A DNA stretch of 64,000 bases, from the IMG/VR virus record IMGVR_UViG_3300024229_000651. One strand, written 5' to 3'. This DNA is from a virus (Duplodnaviria > Caudoviricetes). The notes under the pieces are model-generated. The model was not told where the DNA came from. It ran no database searches and saw nothing but the letters and a program-made list of their open reading frames with translations. Of the stretch, positions 2,932 to 47,588 are shown piece by piece. Numbering within the stretch: the first letter of the stretch is position 1; each line of letters starts with the position of its first letter. The position numbers and the translations under genes are program-made.

Positions 2932-4138
2932 ATTTGCACACACTCACTGCAGCACTGCGGCCGCCGAATCCAAAACTTGTTTTCATAAAGCGATTGTATG
3001 TTTTACTCACTACGTCTTTATTTAAATTAAAATATTCATCGTCGGTGAACGGCACTTCTAATCCAGCATTTGCAGGCACAAAGTTATCGCACATTGCCTC
3101 AGCACCCAACACTATTTCCGCAATACCAGATGCTCCCATTAAGTGTCCTATTTGACCCTTGTTGCTGTATAGATAGCTGCCTTTAGGGAAATAGTCTCTA
3201 AGTACATTGTACTCAACTGGATCACCGAACGGTGTGCTAGTTGCATGTGCGTTTAAAACGTCATATGCAGACGTTTCAACTTCTGCCTGGGACAATGCCC
3301 TATCAATTGCAATTCTAGCGCCTGTCCCCTCTAAATCTGGCTGTGTAGGGTGTGCACCATCGTTAGCAATACCTAAACCATCAACAACCCAGCGAATACT
3401 AGCACCCCGAGCTTCTGCTTTTTCTAAGGGTTCTACGACAAGATAAACTGTGCCTTCTCCCATAACAAATCCGTCTCTAGATTTATCCCACGGCACACTT
3501 CTTCCAGTAGGAGATATTGCACCTAACTGTTGAAAATAGAGTGTGCTCATGCTACTTGTCATGAAGTCAGTTCCACCAACTATTGCACAATCATATCCTT
3601 CTGTTTGCATGTACTTCTTTGCTAGATCTAGTGCCTGTACAGCACTGATACATGTTCCACTTGTTGCCATACTCGGGCCATGCCACTTATAATGACTGCT
3701 TATATGGTTACTCACATATTCATGGCTGCTAGATAACAGTATTTGTGGGTGTATTTTTGATTTGCCTTGTACAAGTAAGTTGCTAAACTTAGCTAGGTTA
3801 GGTGCGCCGCCGCGAATGGTTCCTATGAACACAGGAGTATTGTCAGGGAAGTCAAGTCCGCTCATCTTAACTGCTTGGTCAACTGCAATCATACTTGTGA
3901 TCACAGTAGGGTCTGTCCAGCGGATATCTTTTTTGCGCATTAAGCCTAGTGCTTCAGTGTCTACATCGTCGTAGTTACAGTGAAATGCTCTTTCTACTGT
4001 TAATGTCGCATCAGAAAAATGTCCTGAACGTCTATATTCTGTATTGGGTACACACAAATCTTTTAAATTTGTGATGTTTTCTTGAATATTGTTTCCTAAG
4101 GGAGAGACAATGCCTATGCCAGTAATTGCTAGTTTCAT
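2921..4138 (-). CDS. fabF: Beta-ketoacyl-ACP synthase (FabF/FabB-like)
   Basis: ITGIGIVSPLG, catalytic Cys in GTCISA, NAHATST, KGQIGHLMG, DGFVMGEG, SFGFGG. Confidence 0.88.
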   Translation of the reverse strand: MKLAITGIGIVSPLGNNIQENITNLKDLCVPNTEYRRSGHFSDATLTVERAFHCNYDDVDTEALGLMRKKDIRWTDPTVITSMIAVDQAVKMSGLDFPDNTPVFIGTIRGGAPNLAKFSNLLVQGKSKIHPQILLSSSHEYVSNHISSHYKWHGPSMATSGTCISAVQALDLAKKYMQTEGYDCAIVGGTDFMTSSMSTLYFQQLGAISPTGRSVPWDKSRDGFVMGEGTVYLVVEPLEKAEARGASIRWVVDGLGIANDGAHPTQPDLEGTGARIAIDRALSQAEVETSAYDVLNAHATSTPFGDPVEYNVLRDYFPKGSYLYSNKGQIGHLMGASGIAEIVLGAEAMCDNFVPANAGLEVPFTDDEYFNLNKDVVSKTYNRFMKTSFGFGGRSAAVSVCKYER

Positions 4139-24131: not shown

Positions 24132-24530
24132 TTATTTTTTCTTTATGCGTTGACGAAGACGATCCTGTTGTTCTCTAACCGGCTTCATTTTCTTTTTGGT
24201 TTTAAGATGTTTTAATCCACTAGTAGCATACTGCACATGTTCACCAGATATTTCCTTCTCTGTGACTGATCTCTGCCACCGCTTTGCAGCTTGTGCCTTT
24301 GATCTGCGCTTAGTTTCGCTTGGCTTTTCGTAATACATATTTTTTGATATAGTCTTCTGAAAGTCATCACGCTCTAATCTCTTTTTTAGAATTCGTAGTG
24401 CTTTACCTACATCGCCGCCTCGGACTTCGACCCCAGGTTTAAAATAATCAAAAAAGTTTTCTTTTGGTCTTGTGTCGTTACCCTTATTATTCCAAGACTT
24501 GGAATAATTGTTATTCTTATGTTTGTTCAA
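24132..24530 (-). CDS. rpsU: Ribosomal protein bS21 with N- and C-terminal extensions
   Basis: VEVRGGDVGKALRILKK...YYEKPSETKRR. Confidence 0.8.
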   Translation of the reverse strand: MNKHKNNNYSKSWNNKGNDTRPKENFFDYFKPGVEVRGGDVGKALRILKKRLERDDFQKTISKNMYYEKPSETKRRSKAQAAKRWQRSVTEKEISGEHVQYATSGLKHLKTKKKMKPVREQQDRLRQRIKKK

Positions 24531-35601: not shown

Positions 35602-36189
35602 ATGGCAGACATTTTTAACTTTGCACAAAAAGGTTTAGCTAACCTAGTGCAATTCGGCAAAAGAGGTCTCAAACTTGTCAGTAATACTAGCGGAGAATAC
35701 TTCTCGTTTACAGCAAACGATGGTACAACACTAGTAGAAGTACGTGGTGCTAACGCAACTGTTGCAGAAGCGTTCATCACAAAAGGACAATTTGATGCTT
35801 CCACCTCAGCTATCACACAGTACGTTAGTACAGAAGTAGCATTTGATAATGGTACTACAACATTATTTGAGATCCCTAGCAATTCTATGGTTTACAGTGT
35901 GTCTGTAGACGTAGGTAGCCCATGGGTAAGTGCTGATGCATCTACTGCAATTAGAGTAGGCGACGATAGTGACGATGACAGGTTATTTACTGATGACGAA
36001 GCTGACATGACTCAGACTTTCCAATTCCATAGTAATTACCAGCATATTTACGATTCACCTGCAAATATAACTTGTACAGTAGCAGGCGGTAGTGCATCGT
36101 CAGGTATTGCCACGGTAACATGCGTAGTTGTAACAGAGAACTTAACTGTTAAAGATTACGGTAGTGTCGCGGATGCAGCTGGTCTATAA
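35602..36189 (+). CDS. Probable virion structural protein
   Basis: Late TAAATA box, GGAG SD, S/T/A/G/D-rich beta protein, followed by a terminator. Confidence 0.55.
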   Translation: MADIFNFAQKGLANLVQFGKRGLKLVSNTSGEYFSFTANDGTTLVEVRGANATVAEAFITKGQFDASTSAITQYVSTEVAFDNGTTTLFEIPSNSMVYSVSVDVGSPWVSADASTAIRVGDDSDDDRLFTDDEADMTQTFQFHSNYQHIYDSPANITCTVAGGSASSGIATVTCVVVTENLTVKDYGSVADAAGL

Positions 36190-36213
36190 TTAAAAAATAG
36201 ATTGACACTAAAG

Positions 36214-36241
36214 AAGCCTGCTTCACAGCAGGCTTTTTTTT
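36214..36241 (+). terminator. Rho-independent terminator
   Basis: AAGCCTGCT-TCAC-AGCAGGCTT followed by a T run. Confidence 0.85.
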
Positions 36242-36295
36242 GCTTTTAAAAAACATATGATAAATACAACTATATTAACAGCGTAAGGAACAAGT

Positions 36296-36739
36296 ATGGA
36301 CCGCAAAGCAATATTTGAACAACTAAAAATCGACGAAGGAGTTGTTTATGAAATTTATAAAGACCATCTGGGCTACCCAACTTTCGGAGTTGGCCACCTG
36401 GTCACAGAAAACGATCCAGAGCACGGAGCAGAAGTCGGAACATCCGTATCTGAGTCAAGAGTGGCAGAATGCTTTGAACGTGACCTTGACACCTCAATTA
36501 GTGAATGTGTTGCGTTATACGGAGAACAGTTTAATGAATGGCCAGGAGAAGTACAAGAAATCCTAGTTAACATGATGTTCAACATGGGCAGAACACGTTT
36601 AGGCAAGTTTAAAAACTTCCGCAAGGCACTAGAAGCTCAAGACTGGAAGAAAGCAGGAATTGAAGGCAGAGATAGCCGTTGGCACAAACAGGTAACTAAC
36701 CGTGCTGAAAGACTAATGGTAAGATTAGAGGAAGTATAA
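36296..36739 (+). CDS. T4-type lysozyme (GH24 endolysin)
   Basis: LKIDEG...YKDHLGYPTFGVGH, NMMFNMG, SRWHKQVTNRAERL. Confidence 0.92.
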   Translation: MDRKAIFEQLKIDEGVVYEIYKDHLGYPTFGVGHLVTENDPEHGAEVGTSVSESRVAECFERDLDTSISECVALYGEQFNEWPGEVQEILVNMMFNMGRTRLGKFKNFRKALEAQDWKKAGIEGRDSRWHKQVTNRAERLMVRLEEV

Positions 36740-37407
36740 TGACTGTGTATACCTTCGGGTGTAGCTTTACTTACGGATGTGAAGGTAGCGACTACAATGC
36801 AACTAGTTGGGTTGAGAAACTTGCACAGAGATACCCAGATATAGAATTTGAAGATTTTGCTTATCCGGGTACATGTATAGAGTACAGTTTATATCATTAT
36901 GAAAAAGTTGCTAAAAGATTGCAGCCAGAAGATATAACTGTATTCCAGTTTACAATTCCATTTAGATACACAACATGGACTAACAGTGCAGTATTTGATG
37001 ACCCGCAGAACAGGCATAAAAAATCGTCGAACTATACAAAATTTGTACCAGATTTTAATATCAATTTAGAAAGATATATAGGTAATTTACGAAATTGGCA
37101 GTATCACGATAATCAGGAATTGCTAGATAAGGAATTTCATACAAAGTATTATACAAAATTTAACGAGGGTAAAGAGATGGCGGCATACAATGCTATCGCA
37201 AACTATCTTAGGAGTAAAACAACATTTACGTTTTTTCACACTGAGCCGCCAGCTGGCGTGGATGATAAAGACAGTGTTGTAATACAAAACATTTTAGGTA
37301 AACAGTTTAAAAAATATACGTGGGACTGGGGACGACATTTTGGTGACGAAGGCTGTAATTTTGTAGCCGACATTGTTGAAGAAAACATAGGATTAAAAAA
37401 CAAATGA
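36739..37407 (+). CDS. SGNH-like protein, paralog 4
   Basis: FGCSFTYG; C-terminal WGRHFGDEG. Confidence 0.65.
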   Translation: MTVYTFGCSFTYGCEGSDYNATSWVEKLAQRYPDIEFEDFAYPGTCIEYSLYHYEKVAKRLQPEDITVFQFTIPFRYTTWTNSAVFDDPQNRHKKSSNYTKFVPDFNINLERYIGNLRNWQYHDNQELLDKEFHTKYYTKFNEGKEMAAYNAIANYLRSKTTFTFFHTEPPAGVDDKDSVVIQNILGKQFKKYTWDWGRHFGDEGCNFVADIVEENIGLKNK

Positions 37408-38177
37408 AATTAAATGATTTAGGCAAAAAGTATCTAGAGTTAGAGAATGGTACAGGAAATTTTAATATAAAAGTTGGCGGTGAAACTATCAATACTGTTG
37501 CTGGGAGTGACCGTGCAAATAAATTTGTTGAGTCCTTGAAAAGAAAAGGCATCACGGCAATAGCAGAAGCGGACGAGCCCACAACTGATAAAAGTGCTAG
37601 AGCTAGATTAGATCTTAATCTACGTGATCGAGGACACAGCGTTGAAAAGCCTAAAAAAGGCAAAGGATCGTATGCACGTTCAGACAAGCATAAGAAGCCA
37701 GTGTCTGAAGGGCCACTAGTGGTTAGTAGATCATCCGACTTAATGGGGATGCTTGATGTATTACTAAAAGATTTCAAAAGCAAAAGTCCAAGCGATGAAG
37801 AAATGATCGCTTTAGTAAAGTCGCTTGGTTATAACATGACCAAAGATGGTGAGCGCACTACGTTAGTTAAAGAAGAAGATTGCGATATCGACGAGGGTAA
37901 CGGTAACATACGCAAAGGCTTAGCCGCAGTAGCGTTGATTGCTGGGTTGTGGAGTGTTAATGACCATGTAGCACAGAAGGCATATGATGCCAGTCCACAA
38001 CTACAAAAATTAACAGCATATCTAGAAGTAGCAAAAGACCATAACGATCAGCGTATGATTGATCAGTTAGAGCAACGTATTGGAAACCACAAGACCAGAA
38101 TCGATATTGGTAAGGGCGAAGTGATGGGTAACGATGGTCGCCCAGTGGACGTTAAATACGACAAGGAAGCTAATTAG
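37404..38177 (+). CDS. Modular protein containing an ArfA-like motif, possible head-internal protein
   Basis: VEKPKKGKGSYARSDKH at aa 80-96; segments bounded by (I/V/L)xE sites. Confidence 0.6.
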   Translation: MKLNDLGKKYLELENGTGNFNIKVGGETINTVAGSDRANKFVESLKRKGITAIAEADEPTTDKSARARLDLNLRDRGHSVEKPKKGKGSYARSDKHKKPVSEGPLVVSRSSDLMGMLDVLLKDFKSKSPSDEEMIALVKSLGYNMTKDGERTTLVKEEDCDIDEGNGNIRKGLAAVALIAGLWSVNDHVAQKAYDASPQLQKLTAYLEVAKDHNDQRMIDQLEQRIGNHKTRIDIGKGEVMGNDGRPVDVKYDKEAN

Positions 38178-38720
38178 TTATTGTTTCGATATAAGCTCTT
38201 TTGCAGCTTCATCACTCATAGGTTGTCTTCCCGGATTATTAGGAAAAACGCAACAAGGTTGTACATTGTAAAACTCTCCACGTTCTTCGCACCACAGACG
38301 TTGCCAGTAATTGCCGTCAACATCTAATTCAATGTGCAATCTTTTATCTGTGTCCATAAAAACGTCAACCATGTCCTTGCCTTCCTGAAAAGATGCTGTT
38401 CGTGCAAGTTTATCAAGATATTCCCCTTCAGGTGATAATCCAAACAAAGGAACAGCACCATCCCAATCTGGATGATCTGCTTGCCAGGACTCTTCGGTAA
38501 TATCCCACTGGGGTGCATAAGTTCCTAATAAATCGGAAAAATTATCACTTAGCCAGAACTTTTCATTTTCCCAGTCATCAAACCCATCTAACTCGATCTC
38601 TTCGCCGTTATAGTTTTTTGTTAGACTTTCTCCGCCGTTGTCTGTAACATATTGCAAGTTTTCATTAATTGTACAAGTCAATCTGCCTATTGTTTGATCA
38701 TGTATCCATGTAAGTTTCAT
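38178..38720 (-). CDS. Hypothetical acidic protein
   Basis: 180-aa ORF with GGAG SD. Confidence 0.65.
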   Translation of the reverse strand: MKLTWIHDQTIGRLTCTINENLQYVTDNGGESLTKNYNGEEIELDGFDDWENEKFWLSDNFSDLLGTYAPQWDITEESWQADHPDWDGAVPLFGLSPEGEYLDKLARTASFQEGKDMVDVFMDTDKRLHIELDVDGNYWQRLWCEERGEFYNVQPCCVFPNNPGRQPMSDEAAKELISKQ

Positions 38721-38792
38721 TGAACATCTCCGCTGGTAATGTTATTATTTATTATTTTCAATAAATAGTACACACATATAAAGGAGAATCAA

Positions 38793-39080
38793 ATGGACTT
38801 ACTAGACCGACTACTATCGGATCAATTATGGATTTACACTGCTATACTAGGATCTTTAATAGGTGCAGCATTTTTAGCATGGTTCCGTAATACACATATG
38901 GGATTATACCTTATGGGTAAGTTCGATAGTTTTTTAGATTATCTTGCTATACGCTGGGGCTGGACATTACTACAAGATGACCCAAACGCATGGCGTAAAC
39001 GTTATCCTAAAGTTACTAAGAAAATTGACGACCTAGAACAGCGAATCATTAATCTAGAAAAGAATAAAAAATTAGACTAA
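38793..39080 (+). CDS. Small membrane protein (holin-like topology possible)
   Basis: One TM helix plus a basic coiled C-terminus; TAAATA box and AAGGAG SD. Confidence 0.55.
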   Translation: MDLLDRLLSDQLWIYTAILGSLIGAAFLAWFRNTHMGLYLMGKFDSFLDYLAIRWGWTLLQDDPNAWRKRYPKVTKKIDDLEQRIINLEKNKKLD

Positions 39081-39097
39081 GATGATAAATATTATGT

Positions 39098-39613
39098 ATG
39101 AAAATATATGAAATTACAGAAGCAGAAGGCGATAACTGTGAAAAATGTCGTGGCCGAGGCAAGTTAGACTTACATAGTGAAGATCCACATAAGTGTAATG
39201 CGTGTGATGGCACTGGCAAACAAAAGTGGAAACCAGAACCAGTTAATTTCAGTAAGTTTAAGAAGGTTGGCGAGCAGGTTGAAGAAACCATTGACAACGA
39301 TGATGATTTTTTTGAAGCATACGGCTGGATAGACGGCGAATCACTCGAAGAAGCAGAATATCAAGGACGTAAAGTTAAACTAGGCAAGCCTATGCAAGGT
39401 GATGTTAAGAAGTTTAAAGTTTATGTTAAAGATCCTAAAACAGGTAATGTTAAAAAAGTTAACTTTGGACACGGCGGAAGCAGTGTTAAAGGTAAAGCAA
39501 TGAAGATTAGAAAATCTAATCCTAAGGCTCGTAAGAGTTTCAGAGCAAGACATAACTGTGATAATCCAGGGCCTCGCACTAAGGCACGTTATTGGTCATG
39601 TAGGAAGTGGTAG
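39098..39613 (+). CDS. Conserved phage protein with a DnaJ-like Zn finger and a basic C-terminal domain
   Basis: CEKCRGRG/CNACDGTG; KKFKVYVKDPKTG...RKSFRARHNC...RYWSCRKW. Confidence 0.7.
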   Translation: MKIYEITEAEGDNCEKCRGRGKLDLHSEDPHKCNACDGTGKQKWKPEPVNFSKFKKVGEQVEETIDNDDDFFEAYGWIDGESLEEAEYQGRKVKLGKPMQGDVKKFKVYVKDPKTGNVKKVNFGHGGSSVKGKAMKIRKSNPKARKSFRARHNCDNPGPRTKARYWSCRKW

Positions 39614-40486: not shown

Positions 40487-41050
40487 ATGAAAAAGATTGC
40501 TATAACAGGACATACACAGGGCATAGGCAAAGCAGTTGTAGATTTATGCAAACATGATTACGAAATTTTAGGATTTAGTAGAGCCACTGGGCATAATTTA
40601 CTGAAGCCTGGTGTTGTAGAAAGAATATTTGAAGAAGCAAAAGACTGTGACATTTTTATTAACAATGCTTTTTCCACAGATGCACAAATGAAGCTATTTG
40701 ATTTATTTTATAATCACTGGAAAGATGATGTGACAAAGTTTATCATTAATGTTAACAGTAAAAATAGATTTCGGGCAGGCGATGGTAGCTTCGGAGATAA
40801 TGGTTACGCCGCTGTAAAAGCACTATTGCATAAACAGTGGATAGACGTATTACATGAATCTGGGAGACTATGTAAAATATCAAACATATCTCCGGGATTT
40901 GTTGATACATATTTAATAAGTCATTTTTCTGTACCTGAGTGGCTCAAACAGCCGCCAGAAGAATGTGCAGAAACAATTATGTGGCTTATTAACCAGCCAG
41001 ATAATGTAGAAATAGGCGAAGTAAGTTATTGGAGACGTAAGGCACAATGA
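40487..41050 (+). CDS. Short-chain dehydrogenase/reductase, paralog 2
   Basis: TGHTQGIG, FINNA, YAAVK, NISPGFVDT. Confidence 0.85.
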   Translation: MKKIAITGHTQGIGKAVVDLCKHDYEILGFSRATGHNLLKPGVVERIFEEAKDCDIFINNAFSTDAQMKLFDLFYNHWKDDVTKFIINVNSKNRFRAGDGSFGDNGYAAVKALLHKQWIDVLHESGRLCKISNISPGFVDTYLISHFSVPEWLKQPPEECAETIMWLINQPDNVEIGEVSYWRRKAQ

Positions 41051-42666
41051 AAAAAGCTATAATATACCCAGGTCGGTTTCAACCAATGCTACCACATCAC
41101 GCAGAAGTATATCGCAGACTGCAAAGTACTTTTCCTGATGCTGATGTATTTGTTGCTACATCGGACAAAGTTGATCCTCCGAAAAGCCCTTTTCCATTTT
41201 CTGAGAAGGTACAAATCATGCAAGAAATGCATGGCATACCTAAAGACAAAATTTTAATTGCTCCCCAACCGTACCTAGTAGACAGTTTCAAAGACAAGTT
41301 TGACTCTGAAAATACAATGGTTATTTTTGCGGTGGGTGAAAAAGACAATGACCGTTTTCCTATGAACAATGTTGATCCTGCTACAGGATTAGATATGACT
41401 GTGCGCGGAGTTACCAGGCCAAAATACTATCAGATGATAAATACATTAAAGACTGATCCTCCCATGTCAATGAATGAGCGAGGTTATATTTACAATGCTC
41501 CAAGCATTGAAGGATTGGACGGAGAAGTAGCTAGTGCAAGTGCTTTTAGAGAAGCATTCACAAGTGTTGATAACGAACAGCAGCAACGTGCTATATTTGA
41601 AAAATATATGGGTACGTTTAACGAAAATATATTTGCACTGTTTAAGAATAAACTAATAGGTGATAAAATGAAAGAATCAATTGAAAAACTAAAATTTTTA
41701 GCAGGAATGTTAGAAAGTGCTCCTGTAGATTTTGATGATGAACCAGAAGCACGTTTATCCGATGAAGAAGATGATGACTTGAAGCCAGGCTTTGCTCAAA
41801 AAGGCATGATCAATCAGTTAGGTAAAATTGCTGACAGCGAAGATGCTAGTCAAGATGCTGATTCAATGAAAGTTAAAAAGTTTTCTAAGCTAACTACTGT
41901 TACAACAGATGATGGCGATGAAATAGAACTATCAGGAAGCGAAGCTAAAGCTCTTATTAAAATGTTTAACATGTTATCTGCACAAAGAGCTGGTGACGAG
42001 CAATCACCTAGAGAAAGATTCATCCGTGCTATCCAAACTACAAAAGGTTTAGACAGCATGACCGCTTTTGCTAAAGCAAAAGGACTTGTAGAAGAAACTG
42101 CTGAAGATCAGTATACATTAGATTTCGATGACATCCGTTCAGACTATGGCACTGAAGACAAAAGCAAACGTCAGATAATGGACGCTGTAGTACAGGAATT
42201 GGCTGAGTTGGCTAAATGGGTACAGGAAGCAGATTATCGTTGGAGTGAAAGTATGTATGACGAGTTCAATGCCGCAATTGAACCTATACTGGACCACGAA
42301 GATCTTATAAAACAATTAATGGACCCACAGCATGAAGTAATTTATCCTGAAATGGAAGAAGAGGACGAAGGAACGATTAAGTCAATAATAGATAGATTGG
42401 CAAAGAGATTGGCAGATTTTAGAGTAGGCTCTGTAAAAGAAACTGCTGTAGACGAAGAAGAGATCGATGAAGTTGCAGGACCTGAAGATTGCTGGCCCGG
42501 TCATAAGAAAGTTGGTACACAACCAGGAACAGGCAAGAACAAAGGCAAGCGTGTTAACAAATGCGTTAAAGAAGAAGAAGATGATGACGAAAGTGCATTA
42601 GAAGAAACTACTAATATCGCGATGGCAGCTGCATTAGAAGAGTTAAGAAAATTAGCAGGCATTTAA
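41047..42666 (+). CDS. Nucleotidylyltransferase (NMNAT/cytidylyltransferase-like) fused to a long acidic modular tail
   Basis: YPGRFQPMLPHH, SASAFR; tail with KLKFLAGMLE, CWPGHKKVG..NKCVK and ELRKLAGI. Confidence 0.7.
   Translation: MKKAIIYPGRFQPMLPHHAEVYRRLQSTFPDADVFVATSDKVDPPKSPFPFSEKVQIMQEMHGIPKDKILIAPQPYLVDSFKDKFDSENTMVIFAVGEKDNDRFPMNNVDPATGLDMTVRGVTRPKYYQMINTLKTDPPMSMNERGYIYNAPSIEGLDGEVASASAFREAFTSVDNEQQQRAIFEKYMGTFNENIFALFKNKLIGDKMKESIEKLKFLAGMLESAPVDFDDEPEARLSDEEDDDLKPGFAQKGMINQLGKIADSEDASQDADSMKVKKFSKLTTVTTDDGDEIELSGSEAKALIKMFNMLSAQRAGDEQSPRERFIRAIQTTKGLDSMTAFAKAKGLVEETAEDQYTLDFDDIRSDYGTEDKSKRQIMDAVVQELAELAKWVQEADYRWSESMYDEFNAAIEPILDHEDLIKQLMDPQHEVIYPEMEEEDEGTIKSIIDRLAKRLADFRVGSVKETAVDEEEIDEVAGPEDCWPGHKKVGTQPGTGKNKGKRVNKCVKEEEDDDESALEETTNIAMAAALEELRKLAGI

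Positions 42667-47512: not shown

Positions 47513-47588
<76 letters not shown>

Follow-up and report, generated by a model that had tools for sequence, protein, structure and literature searches.

P0001, a 257-amino-acid (aa) protein encoded by a phage of the Caudoviricetes, contains an internal copy of the mRNA-tunnel-binding tail of the bacterial ribosome-rescue factor ArfA within a protein that has the features typical of head proteins targeted to the capsid and cut by a protease. Its open reading frame (ORF; 37404..38177, + strand, stop codon included) lies in the window, i.e. the whole stretch of 64,000 nucleotides analyzed, which corresponds to bases 121549-185548 of the 339,794-bp IMG/VR virus record IMGVR_UViG_3300024229_000651 (completeness rating 91%); coordinates are those of the window unless stated otherwise. 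P0001 may well be a late, T4-type head-internal polyprotein processed by the prohead protease, one of its products being an ArfA-tail peptide that would most likely bind ribosomes with an empty mRNA channel. Packaging, cleavage, delivery and ribosome binding of these products are what we infer from the sequence. Should the peptide reach ribosomes, the phage would manipulate translation already from the first seconds of infection, or on head maturation. The literature searched contained no account of this tail as a module embedded in head proteins and bracketed by protease sites.

The ArfA-type tail occupies aa 80-97 (VEKPKKGKGSYARSDKHK, 37641..37694, + strand) and was detected with Pfam, PDB chains and hhalign. 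Its first 17 residues (aa 80-96, 37641-37691, VEKPKKGKGSYARSDKH) had been said in a preliminary description, made from the sequence alone, to share 13 of 17 identities with E. coli ArfA (QRVEKNKKGKGSYMRKGKH), and this is borne out by the ORF translation and by a phmmer search of all PDB chains, in which the identities read 'vek kkgkgsy r kh' and E. coli ArfA chains (5U4I, 5MDV, 5MGP, 7OJ0, 5H5U) are the sole matches of P0001. Against the whole protein, the Pfam ArfA profile (PF03889) scores 22.6 bits (E-value 7.2e-5), below its gathering cut-off of 25.5 bits; in a six-frame search of the entire 340-kb genome the same stretch is the single match, at 25.6 bits, and relatives score 20.6-29.6 bits. 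A profile of five ArfA-type modules aligns by hhalign with a profile of nine small phage ArfAs at a probability of 97.1% (E-value 6e-11), over 21 columns only (GHSVEKPKKGKGSYARSDKHK of the module versus ArfA 24-44). Thus, the likeness goes beyond composition. The positions that vary among homologs of P0001 (those after the Tyr, and the S/D positions) are also those that vary in ArfA, and V80-P99, the equivalents of ArfA residues 29-48, include eight basic residues, the same number as in E. coli.

The contact between ArfA and release factor 2 (RF2) arises on the ribosome. The hydrophobic N-terminus of ArfA activates RF2, residues 21-30 lie in the A site and residues 31-48 in the mRNA tunnel; truncation to residue 47 keeps activity, and truncation to residue 40 abolishes it (PMC5378476). 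The Pfam match of P0001 is restricted to profile positions 27-44 of 44, positions 1-26 being unmatched in the Pfam search, and the hydrophobic RF2-activating half of ArfA (E. coli aa ~10-28) is undetectable in P0001 by either the Pfam profile or hhalign. The residues that precede the tail (ADEP..SARAxLDxxLRxxGH) have no ArfA counterpart and are common to homologs without an ArfA tail. Since only the tunnel tail is matched and the front half is undetected, P0001 evidently falls outside the ArfA family, with the mRNA-tunnel tail present and the RF2-activating front half absent, and the preliminary designation 'ribosome-rescue factor' is not upheld; canonical RF2-dependent rescue without that front half seems unlikely, if conceivable, given that in other rescue factors such tails are joined to unrelated front halves. 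P0001 resembles ArfA (YhdL; PF03889; PDB 5MDV, 5MGP, 5U4I, 5H5U) in the C-terminal tail VEKxKKGKGSYxRxxKH, but differs in that the motif is internal to a multi-module protein rather than part of a small stand-alone protein (~50-75 aa), and in that its gene ends with an ordinary stop codon and is not regulated through a non-stop mRNA.

The same tail is found in other phages. A scan of IMG/VR for VEKxKKGKGSY retrieved 11 contigs; x is Pro in every one of them, so that the exact 11-mer is VEKPKKGKGSY. Three complete contigs (L008, L009, L015), in which no T4-type protease was found, encode genuine small ArfAs: a 47-aa protein in L008 and L009 (69.6 bits, profile positions 2-40) and a protein scoring 43 bits in L015. 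Salmonella phage Arash has an ORF whose product is identical to the 47-aa protein; this ORF (OQ632216.1, 57937-58077) is labeled 'ribosomal protein L2' and looks misannotated; Pseudomonas phage pf16 has an unannotated ORF 57% identical to it. To our knowledge, phage ArfA has so far been noted only where small stand-alone genes were annotated in genomes, as with gp30 of the pelagiphage HTVC027P and g10 of the Citromicrobium phage RXM. The last two are annotated as ArfA in published genomes (PMC12753301 and PMC8953757, respectively). These stand-alone proteins, together with metagenomic proteins of 42-101 aa, resemble P0001 in the VEKPKKGKGSY tail, but are products of separate small genes, whereas the tail of P0001 would need proteolysis for its release.

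In five other contigs examined (L006, L007, L010, L013, L016), the 11-mer forms a tail-only module in proteins of 102-182 aa (profile positions 25-41, 25-27 bits); all five contigs encode Peptidase_S77, and in all five the tail-only gene lies directly 3' of the protease gene. In L074, the one region examined, a 294-aa scaffold-like gene and then the capsid gene come after the module gene; the equivalent neighborhood of T4 holds the prohead core genes 67, 68, 21 and 22. The product (L074 6049-6375, - strand, with equivalents in G001-G004) reads KVKERK(R/K)FAPATKVEKPKKGKGSY..., followed by an [LV]-x-E↓S site (the arrow marks a predicted cleavage) and a helical domain ending EIEKPLF. Thus, this gene of marine T4-like contigs resembles that of P0001 in the identical 11-mer, the site after the tail, the T4-type protease and the head-assembly context, but encodes another protein with other flanks at another locus. 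The tail-only protein of L007 matched nothing among 50,697 phage records, and the tail-only head-module protein showed no similarity to T4 gp68 by BLASTP. Wobble positions within the 11-mer have diverged (23-29 of 33 bases identical); selection thus seems to act on the peptide, and a recent transfer of the motif as DNA was rejected on the same differences. A profile search of 1.84 billion representatives returned many proteins of 51-101 aa with the tail only (profile positions 25-44) behind unrelated front halves; the ArfA tail is thus a portable module, fused to many different front halves. This portability bears on the evolution of release-factor-dependent rescue factors.

P0001 is predicted to consist of a leader and four modules, all on the + strand. 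An AlphaFold2 model built on 67 homologs is a chain of small domains with low-confidence linkers between them; Foldseek found no PDB match to it at E<=0.001, which is no surprise for a protein made of mini-domains in a row. The leader (aa 1-14, MKLNDLGKKYLELE, 37404..37445) resembles the capsid targeting sequence of T4, judging by homolog comparison and the starts of T4 internal proteins. Module 1 (aa 15-55, 37446..37568) is a small beta-beta-alpha-beta unit, modeled over aa 19-56 with a predicted local distance difference test (pLDDT) score of 85-90, that ends at the predicted site I53-A54-E55↓A56. Module 2 (aa 56-102, 37569..37709) is the predicted peptide, composed of ADEP...SARARLDLNLRDRGHS, the ArfA-type tail and KKPVSE; the model is disordered over aa 57-109 except for a helix at 65-75, with pLDDT <50 in the ArfA-like stretch, and the predicted site V100-S101-E102↓G103 (37701..37709) lies in a low-pLDDT linker. 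Module 3 (aa 103-164, 37710..37895) is an acidic alpha-alpha-beta-beta domain (net charge -6; aa 110-156 modeled at pLDDT about 82) that ends with the predicted sites V155-K156-E157 and I162-D163-E164↓G165. Module 4 (aa 165-257, 37896..38174), the family-defining C-terminal domain, has three helices (modeled over aa 170-235), includes the hydrophobic helix GLAAVALIAGLWSV, and is the part most conserved across the 67 homologs.

The I53-A54-E55 and V100-S101-E102 sequences had been proposed at the outset as possible cleavage sites that would release a piece of about 45-50 aa. Both turn out to be junctions of a conserved [LIV]-x-E↓[A/G] type, and the genome encodes a T4-type Glu-specific prohead protease. 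In a 67-sequence alignment, Glu is present in 65 of 66 sequences at the E164 column (P3 Leu in 52 and Ile in 11; P1' Ala in 45 and Gly in 20), in 40 of 58 at E102 (P3 Leu in 28, Ile in 6 and Val in 4; P1' Gly in 35), in 29 of 47 at E55 (P3 Val in 13, Ile in 8 and Leu in 4; P1' Ala in 26), and in 51 of 65 at E157 (P3 Val in 29). Equally conserved Glu residues within folded domains (E133, E208, E223) have Asp, Tyr or Gln at P3. The motif-bearing Glu residues sit in linkers between confidently folded domains, and cassette insertions and deletions fall at the same points; linker position, P3/P1' pattern and indels together thus appear typical of proteins that a T4-type Glu-specific prohead protease cuts. 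The predicted products are aa 1-55, 56-102, 103-157/164 and 165-257, of which the second, bracketed by the two sites first proposed, has 47 aa and a net charge of +5, agrees with the length anticipated, and would span ArfA-equivalent positions about 5-51.

The internal proteins of T4 are classic effectors injected with the phage DNA, their known targets being restriction enzymes or RNA polymerase; we know of no T4 internal protein that targets the ribosome. The first 10 residues of T4 IPIII are a capsid targeting sequence, gp21 cuts after Glu, internal proteins are ejected into the host, and among T4-like phages these proteins are diverse, the leader alone being conserved (PMC9026906, PMC3012670). 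In the T4 record, IPIII and IPII start MKTYQEFIAE↓A and IPI starts MKTFKEFTSTTTPVSTITE↓A (MKTFKEF...ITE type). In the P0001 family, a leader M[KRNI][ILVMF]x[QDENHK][ILVF], in outline M-[KR]-[IL]-x-[QDE]-[IL]-x-E, opens 58 of 67 homologs regardless of the module that follows (e.g. MKIIQITE↓ADEP, MRLYQLFE↓AEEP, MKLNDFLTE↓SEEP, MKINQITEGY), and leader-bearing ORFs number 12 in this genome versus 1.5-2.7 expected (P about 2e-5); the likeness of the P0001 leader to the T4 sequence is at the motif level only. The family thus resembles T4 IPI, IPII, IPIII and Alt in its MKTYQEFIAE-type leader, in hypervariable cargo behind a constant leader, and in Glu-specific [L/I]xE junctions (in P0001, predicted cleavages) with a gp21-type protease in the same genome; as a predicted precursor of internal peptides, P0001 also resembles gp67. 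Differences are that the mature parts have no sequence similarity to T4 internal proteins or gp68, and that P0001 has several predicted internal sites, as in a polyprotein, whereas T4 internal proteins lose the leader alone.

Among the genes of this phage are those of a T4-type prohead protease (Peptidase_S77, 85.5 bits; genome 272084-272692) and of a major capsid protein of gp23 type (70% identical to its counterpart in the Pseudomonas jumbo phage PA5oct), with a head module in the order portal, small ORF, SGNH-like protein, acidic protein, protease, scaffold, capsid protein. The DNA of the record is found in seawater metagenomes. As the preliminary description stated, bS21 (~24279-24431) and a tRNA (tRNA-Thr, 47513-47588) are also encoded. 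P0001 lies in a unit with a T4 e-type lysozyme (147 aa, 36296..36739, + strand, 30% identical to T4 gpe with an E-value of 3e-23, and matching endolysin/tail-lysozyme PHROGs) and a GDSL/SGNH-like protein (222 aa, 36739..37407, + strand, weak Pfam Lipase_GDSL match), whose gene end is overlapped by the P0001 start (ATGA). Upstream of the unit are an intrinsic-terminator-like hairpin read from the sequence (AGCCTGC...GCAGGCT followed by a T run, 36215..36241, + strand), which would close the preceding unit, and a late-promoter-like motif (GATAAATA, 36259..36266, + strand), 37 nucleotides 5' of the lysozyme gene, which would head the lysozyme-GDSL-P0001 unit. There are 61 copies of GATAAATA in the 340-kb genome, versus 16-27 of other NATAAATA words, and at least 40 of them lie 13-76 nucleotides 5' of ORF starts on the same strand, including those of the portal, the tail sheath and a 1799-aa fiber-like gene; GATAAATA thus behaves as a late-promoter-like word of this phage. 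The canonical T4 late promoter (TATAAATA) was also considered for this role and is not enriched, whereas GATAAATA is. In the T4 record, e, ipIII and ipII follow one another on one strand; here the order is e-type lysozyme, GDSL, P0001, a likeness to T4 in the place just 3' of e. Virion delivery, as first suggested, is made plausible by this place, the T4-like leader and the late-type promoter motif.

In relatives L078-L080 the GDSL gene is cut to a remnant and the P0001 homolog directly follows the lysozyme gene. In the relatives carrying P0004 this arrangement stands behind the same ATGATAAATACAA motif, and the late-type motif is conserved in L078. Compared with 36739-37407 of the window, the L078 remnant (3905-4000) keeps the start ...VKVYTFGCSFT and the end ...DEGCNVVADIVEKGIGFK; because a close relative has so short a remnant, the GDSL gene is apparently a dispensable insert, recently inserted or deleted.

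Metagenomic homologs of P0001 number 68 (161-448 aa). The C-terminal domain (aa about 165-257) is the constant part of the family and the N-terminal two thirds are variable cassettes; in IMG/VR the domain closes 56 proteins, the longest of 945 aa, and three of these, distant bearers, match phrog_13484 'virion structural protein', an indirect pointer to a place in the mature head. A word-indexed homolog search with aa 50-110 yielded no candidates, and querying the ESM Atlas with the C-terminal domain brought no usable result. In P0018, P0020 and P0026 the slot of the ArfA module is occupied by a DUF7230 (PF23876) segment, KRNPVAKNIEKFNRPATHTDKKKDMKKGEVKHRK, which may be another basic tail module; we know of nothing published on DUF7230.

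According to the mechanism proposed, P0001 would enter the prohead through its capsid-targeting-like N-terminal leader, and the gp21-type (Peptidase_S77) protease would cut it after Glu at E55, E102 and E157/E164. Cleavage would free the peptide aa 56-102, the last third of which is the ArfA-type mRNA-tunnel tail and which would have the size of active ArfA. The peptide might stay in the head and enter the next host with the DNA, or might be shed into the cytoplasm at prohead maturation, and most likely would bind ribosomes with an empty mRNA channel. The missing RF2-activating half makes a channel occupant, or a factor whose front half is of another kind, more likely than a canonical ArfA. 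Binding in the mRNA tunnel of the ribosome would be the simplest account of the exact conservation of non-basic positions across unrelated contexts. Only tentatively can this be extended to marine T4-type phages in general, which might carry ArfA-tail peptides in their heads, freed by the protease from internal or core proteins and delivered with the DNA or shed at maturation, and so seize ribosomes with empty channels; such peptides would then form a class of virion-borne, proteolytically activated effectors of translation, separate from the stand-alone ArfA of phages.

Several observations weigh against this reading. Conservation of the motif in homologs, named in the preliminary description as a test of its reading, holds in part: the tail is kept in the closest relatives of P0001 (P0003, P0004 and P0012, which with P0001 make four of the 21 module-bearing family members) and in P0069, P0083, P0084 and P0085, which have other architectures, but the remaining 17 of 21 combine the same front half with a different Lys-rich tail (KKKELKKGKVKHKGK / VVPDKKKELKKGKVKHKGK). 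Since most family members hold a non-ArfA Lys-rich tail there, the slot may require only basic charge. The Lys-rich variant was considered as a cryptic ArfA tail and rejected (hhalign probability 0.9%). The leader of P0001 itself (…YLELE) has no canonical [LIV]xE site at its end, so aa 1-55 would stay joined. A few hundred injected peptides would be a small number relative to the ribosomes of a large cell. The hydrophobic C-terminal helix and the neighboring lysozyme would also fit a role at the membrane or in lysis, and T4 gp68 ends in a very basic tail. Megablast and tblastn searches of 50,697 phage records with the locus, the protein and the module found nothing, and PHROGs assign no function to P0001.

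Contigs from four seawater metatranscriptome runs stop at 36182-36206, restart at 36234-36288, by the late-type motif, reach ~38720 and restart at 38784-38888, adjacent pieces differing in depth; contaminating DNA would give no breaks at those points, and the unit from about 36265 is therefore transcribed, although contigs assembled from RNA libraries are no proof of one mRNA or of when it is made. The RNA contigs span a convergent ORF (38178-38720, - strand) for an acidic protein of 180 aa with no family match, and since they cross this minus-strand ORF, the unit 36265-38720 probably merges converging transcripts.

The main competing explanation, possible but a good deal less probable than the one preferred, is that the freed segment is a basic head-internal peptide with no ribosomal role, its lysines binding packaged DNA, the inner capsid or the core, and that its likeness to ArfA is a shared solution to polyanion binding or a borrowed piece reused for DNA. 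The non-ArfA tails of the 17 homologs, intermediates such as VEKDKKKKLKKGEVKHKGK, the location of the tail-only gene within a head-morphogenesis module, the strongly basic tail of gp68 and the annotation of T4 gp67 as 'precursor to internal peptides' all agree with it. Against it, the non-basic V, E, P, G, G, S and Y are exactly kept across unrelated proteins whose codons have diverged, which argues for a specific target, and the pattern of conserved and variable positions agrees with that of ArfA. At the other extreme, the freed peptide could be a true ArfA-type rescue factor, recruiting RF2 (or RF1) to non-stop ribosomes, for instance after degradation of host mRNA by the phage. This is unlikely: profile positions 1-26 are unmatched, the hhalign alignment ends at the tail, homologs that lack the ArfA tail have the conserved front half SARAxLDxxLRxxGH as well, and the gene has no non-stop-mRNA design, even though the tail is homologous, the product predicted agrees in size and register with active ArfA (PMC5378476), many metagenomic proteins of 51-101 aa carry the same tail on unrelated front halves, and full phage ArfAs exist (69.6 bits in L009; annotations in HTVC027P gp30 and RXM g10).

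Equally improbable is a late protein that never enters the virion and acts intact, perhaps in association with the membrane or lysis, the [LIV]xE sequences being ordinary linkers and the leader an expression-related N-terminus. The apparent co-transcription with the lysozyme, the conserved hydrophobic helix of the C-terminal domain and the lack of a structural or PHROG annotation of P0001 could be read in this way, but T4 e also precedes the ip genes, the hydrophobic stretch is just ~14 residues long, and the recurrence of a P3/P1/P1' pattern at three junctions and of the leader before unrelated modules is hard to attribute to linkers. That a Lys/Gly-rich stretch matches by composition and chance alone has very little probability; the stretch is indeed short and low in complexity, and with the whole protein Pfam stays under its gathering cut-off, but the hhalign probability, the uniqueness of the match in 340 kb and the recurrence of the 11-mer in genuine phage ArfAs speak against coincidence. 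The processed head polyprotein with a ribosome-directed peptide is the reading preferred over these.

Other ORFs of this genome carry the leader as well, and PHROG scans of these and of the neighbors of P0001 returned 'unknown function' only. A 171-aa protein (ORF 39098-39613, + strand) begins with the same type of leader (MKIYEITE↓AEG), has its own copy of GATAAATA at 39084-39091, and contains a match to the DnaJ-type CxxCxGxG zinc finger and a C-terminal domain that is basic and contains Cys (phrog_7595), which makes it another candidate for an internal protein. Clustered ORFs on the minus strand, of 55 to 1693 aa and with this leader (MKISDIILE, MKLHDFLTE, MKIVEITE, MRLEQIEE, MKFTDI...), lie at 189.9-205.9 kb of the genome (L076), and a 66-aa leader ORF (MRLNEFYE...; genome 274499-274699, L077) adjoins the portal gene, the place of gene 67 in T4. 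A 539-aa protein (window 41047-42666) with a nucleotidyltransferase-like N-terminus and an acidic middle ends ...EELRKLAGI, and the scaffold protein (genome 270962-272074) ends ...INQLRKLAGLSNK; the C-terminal LRKLAG(I/L) common to both may be a second head-targeting tag.

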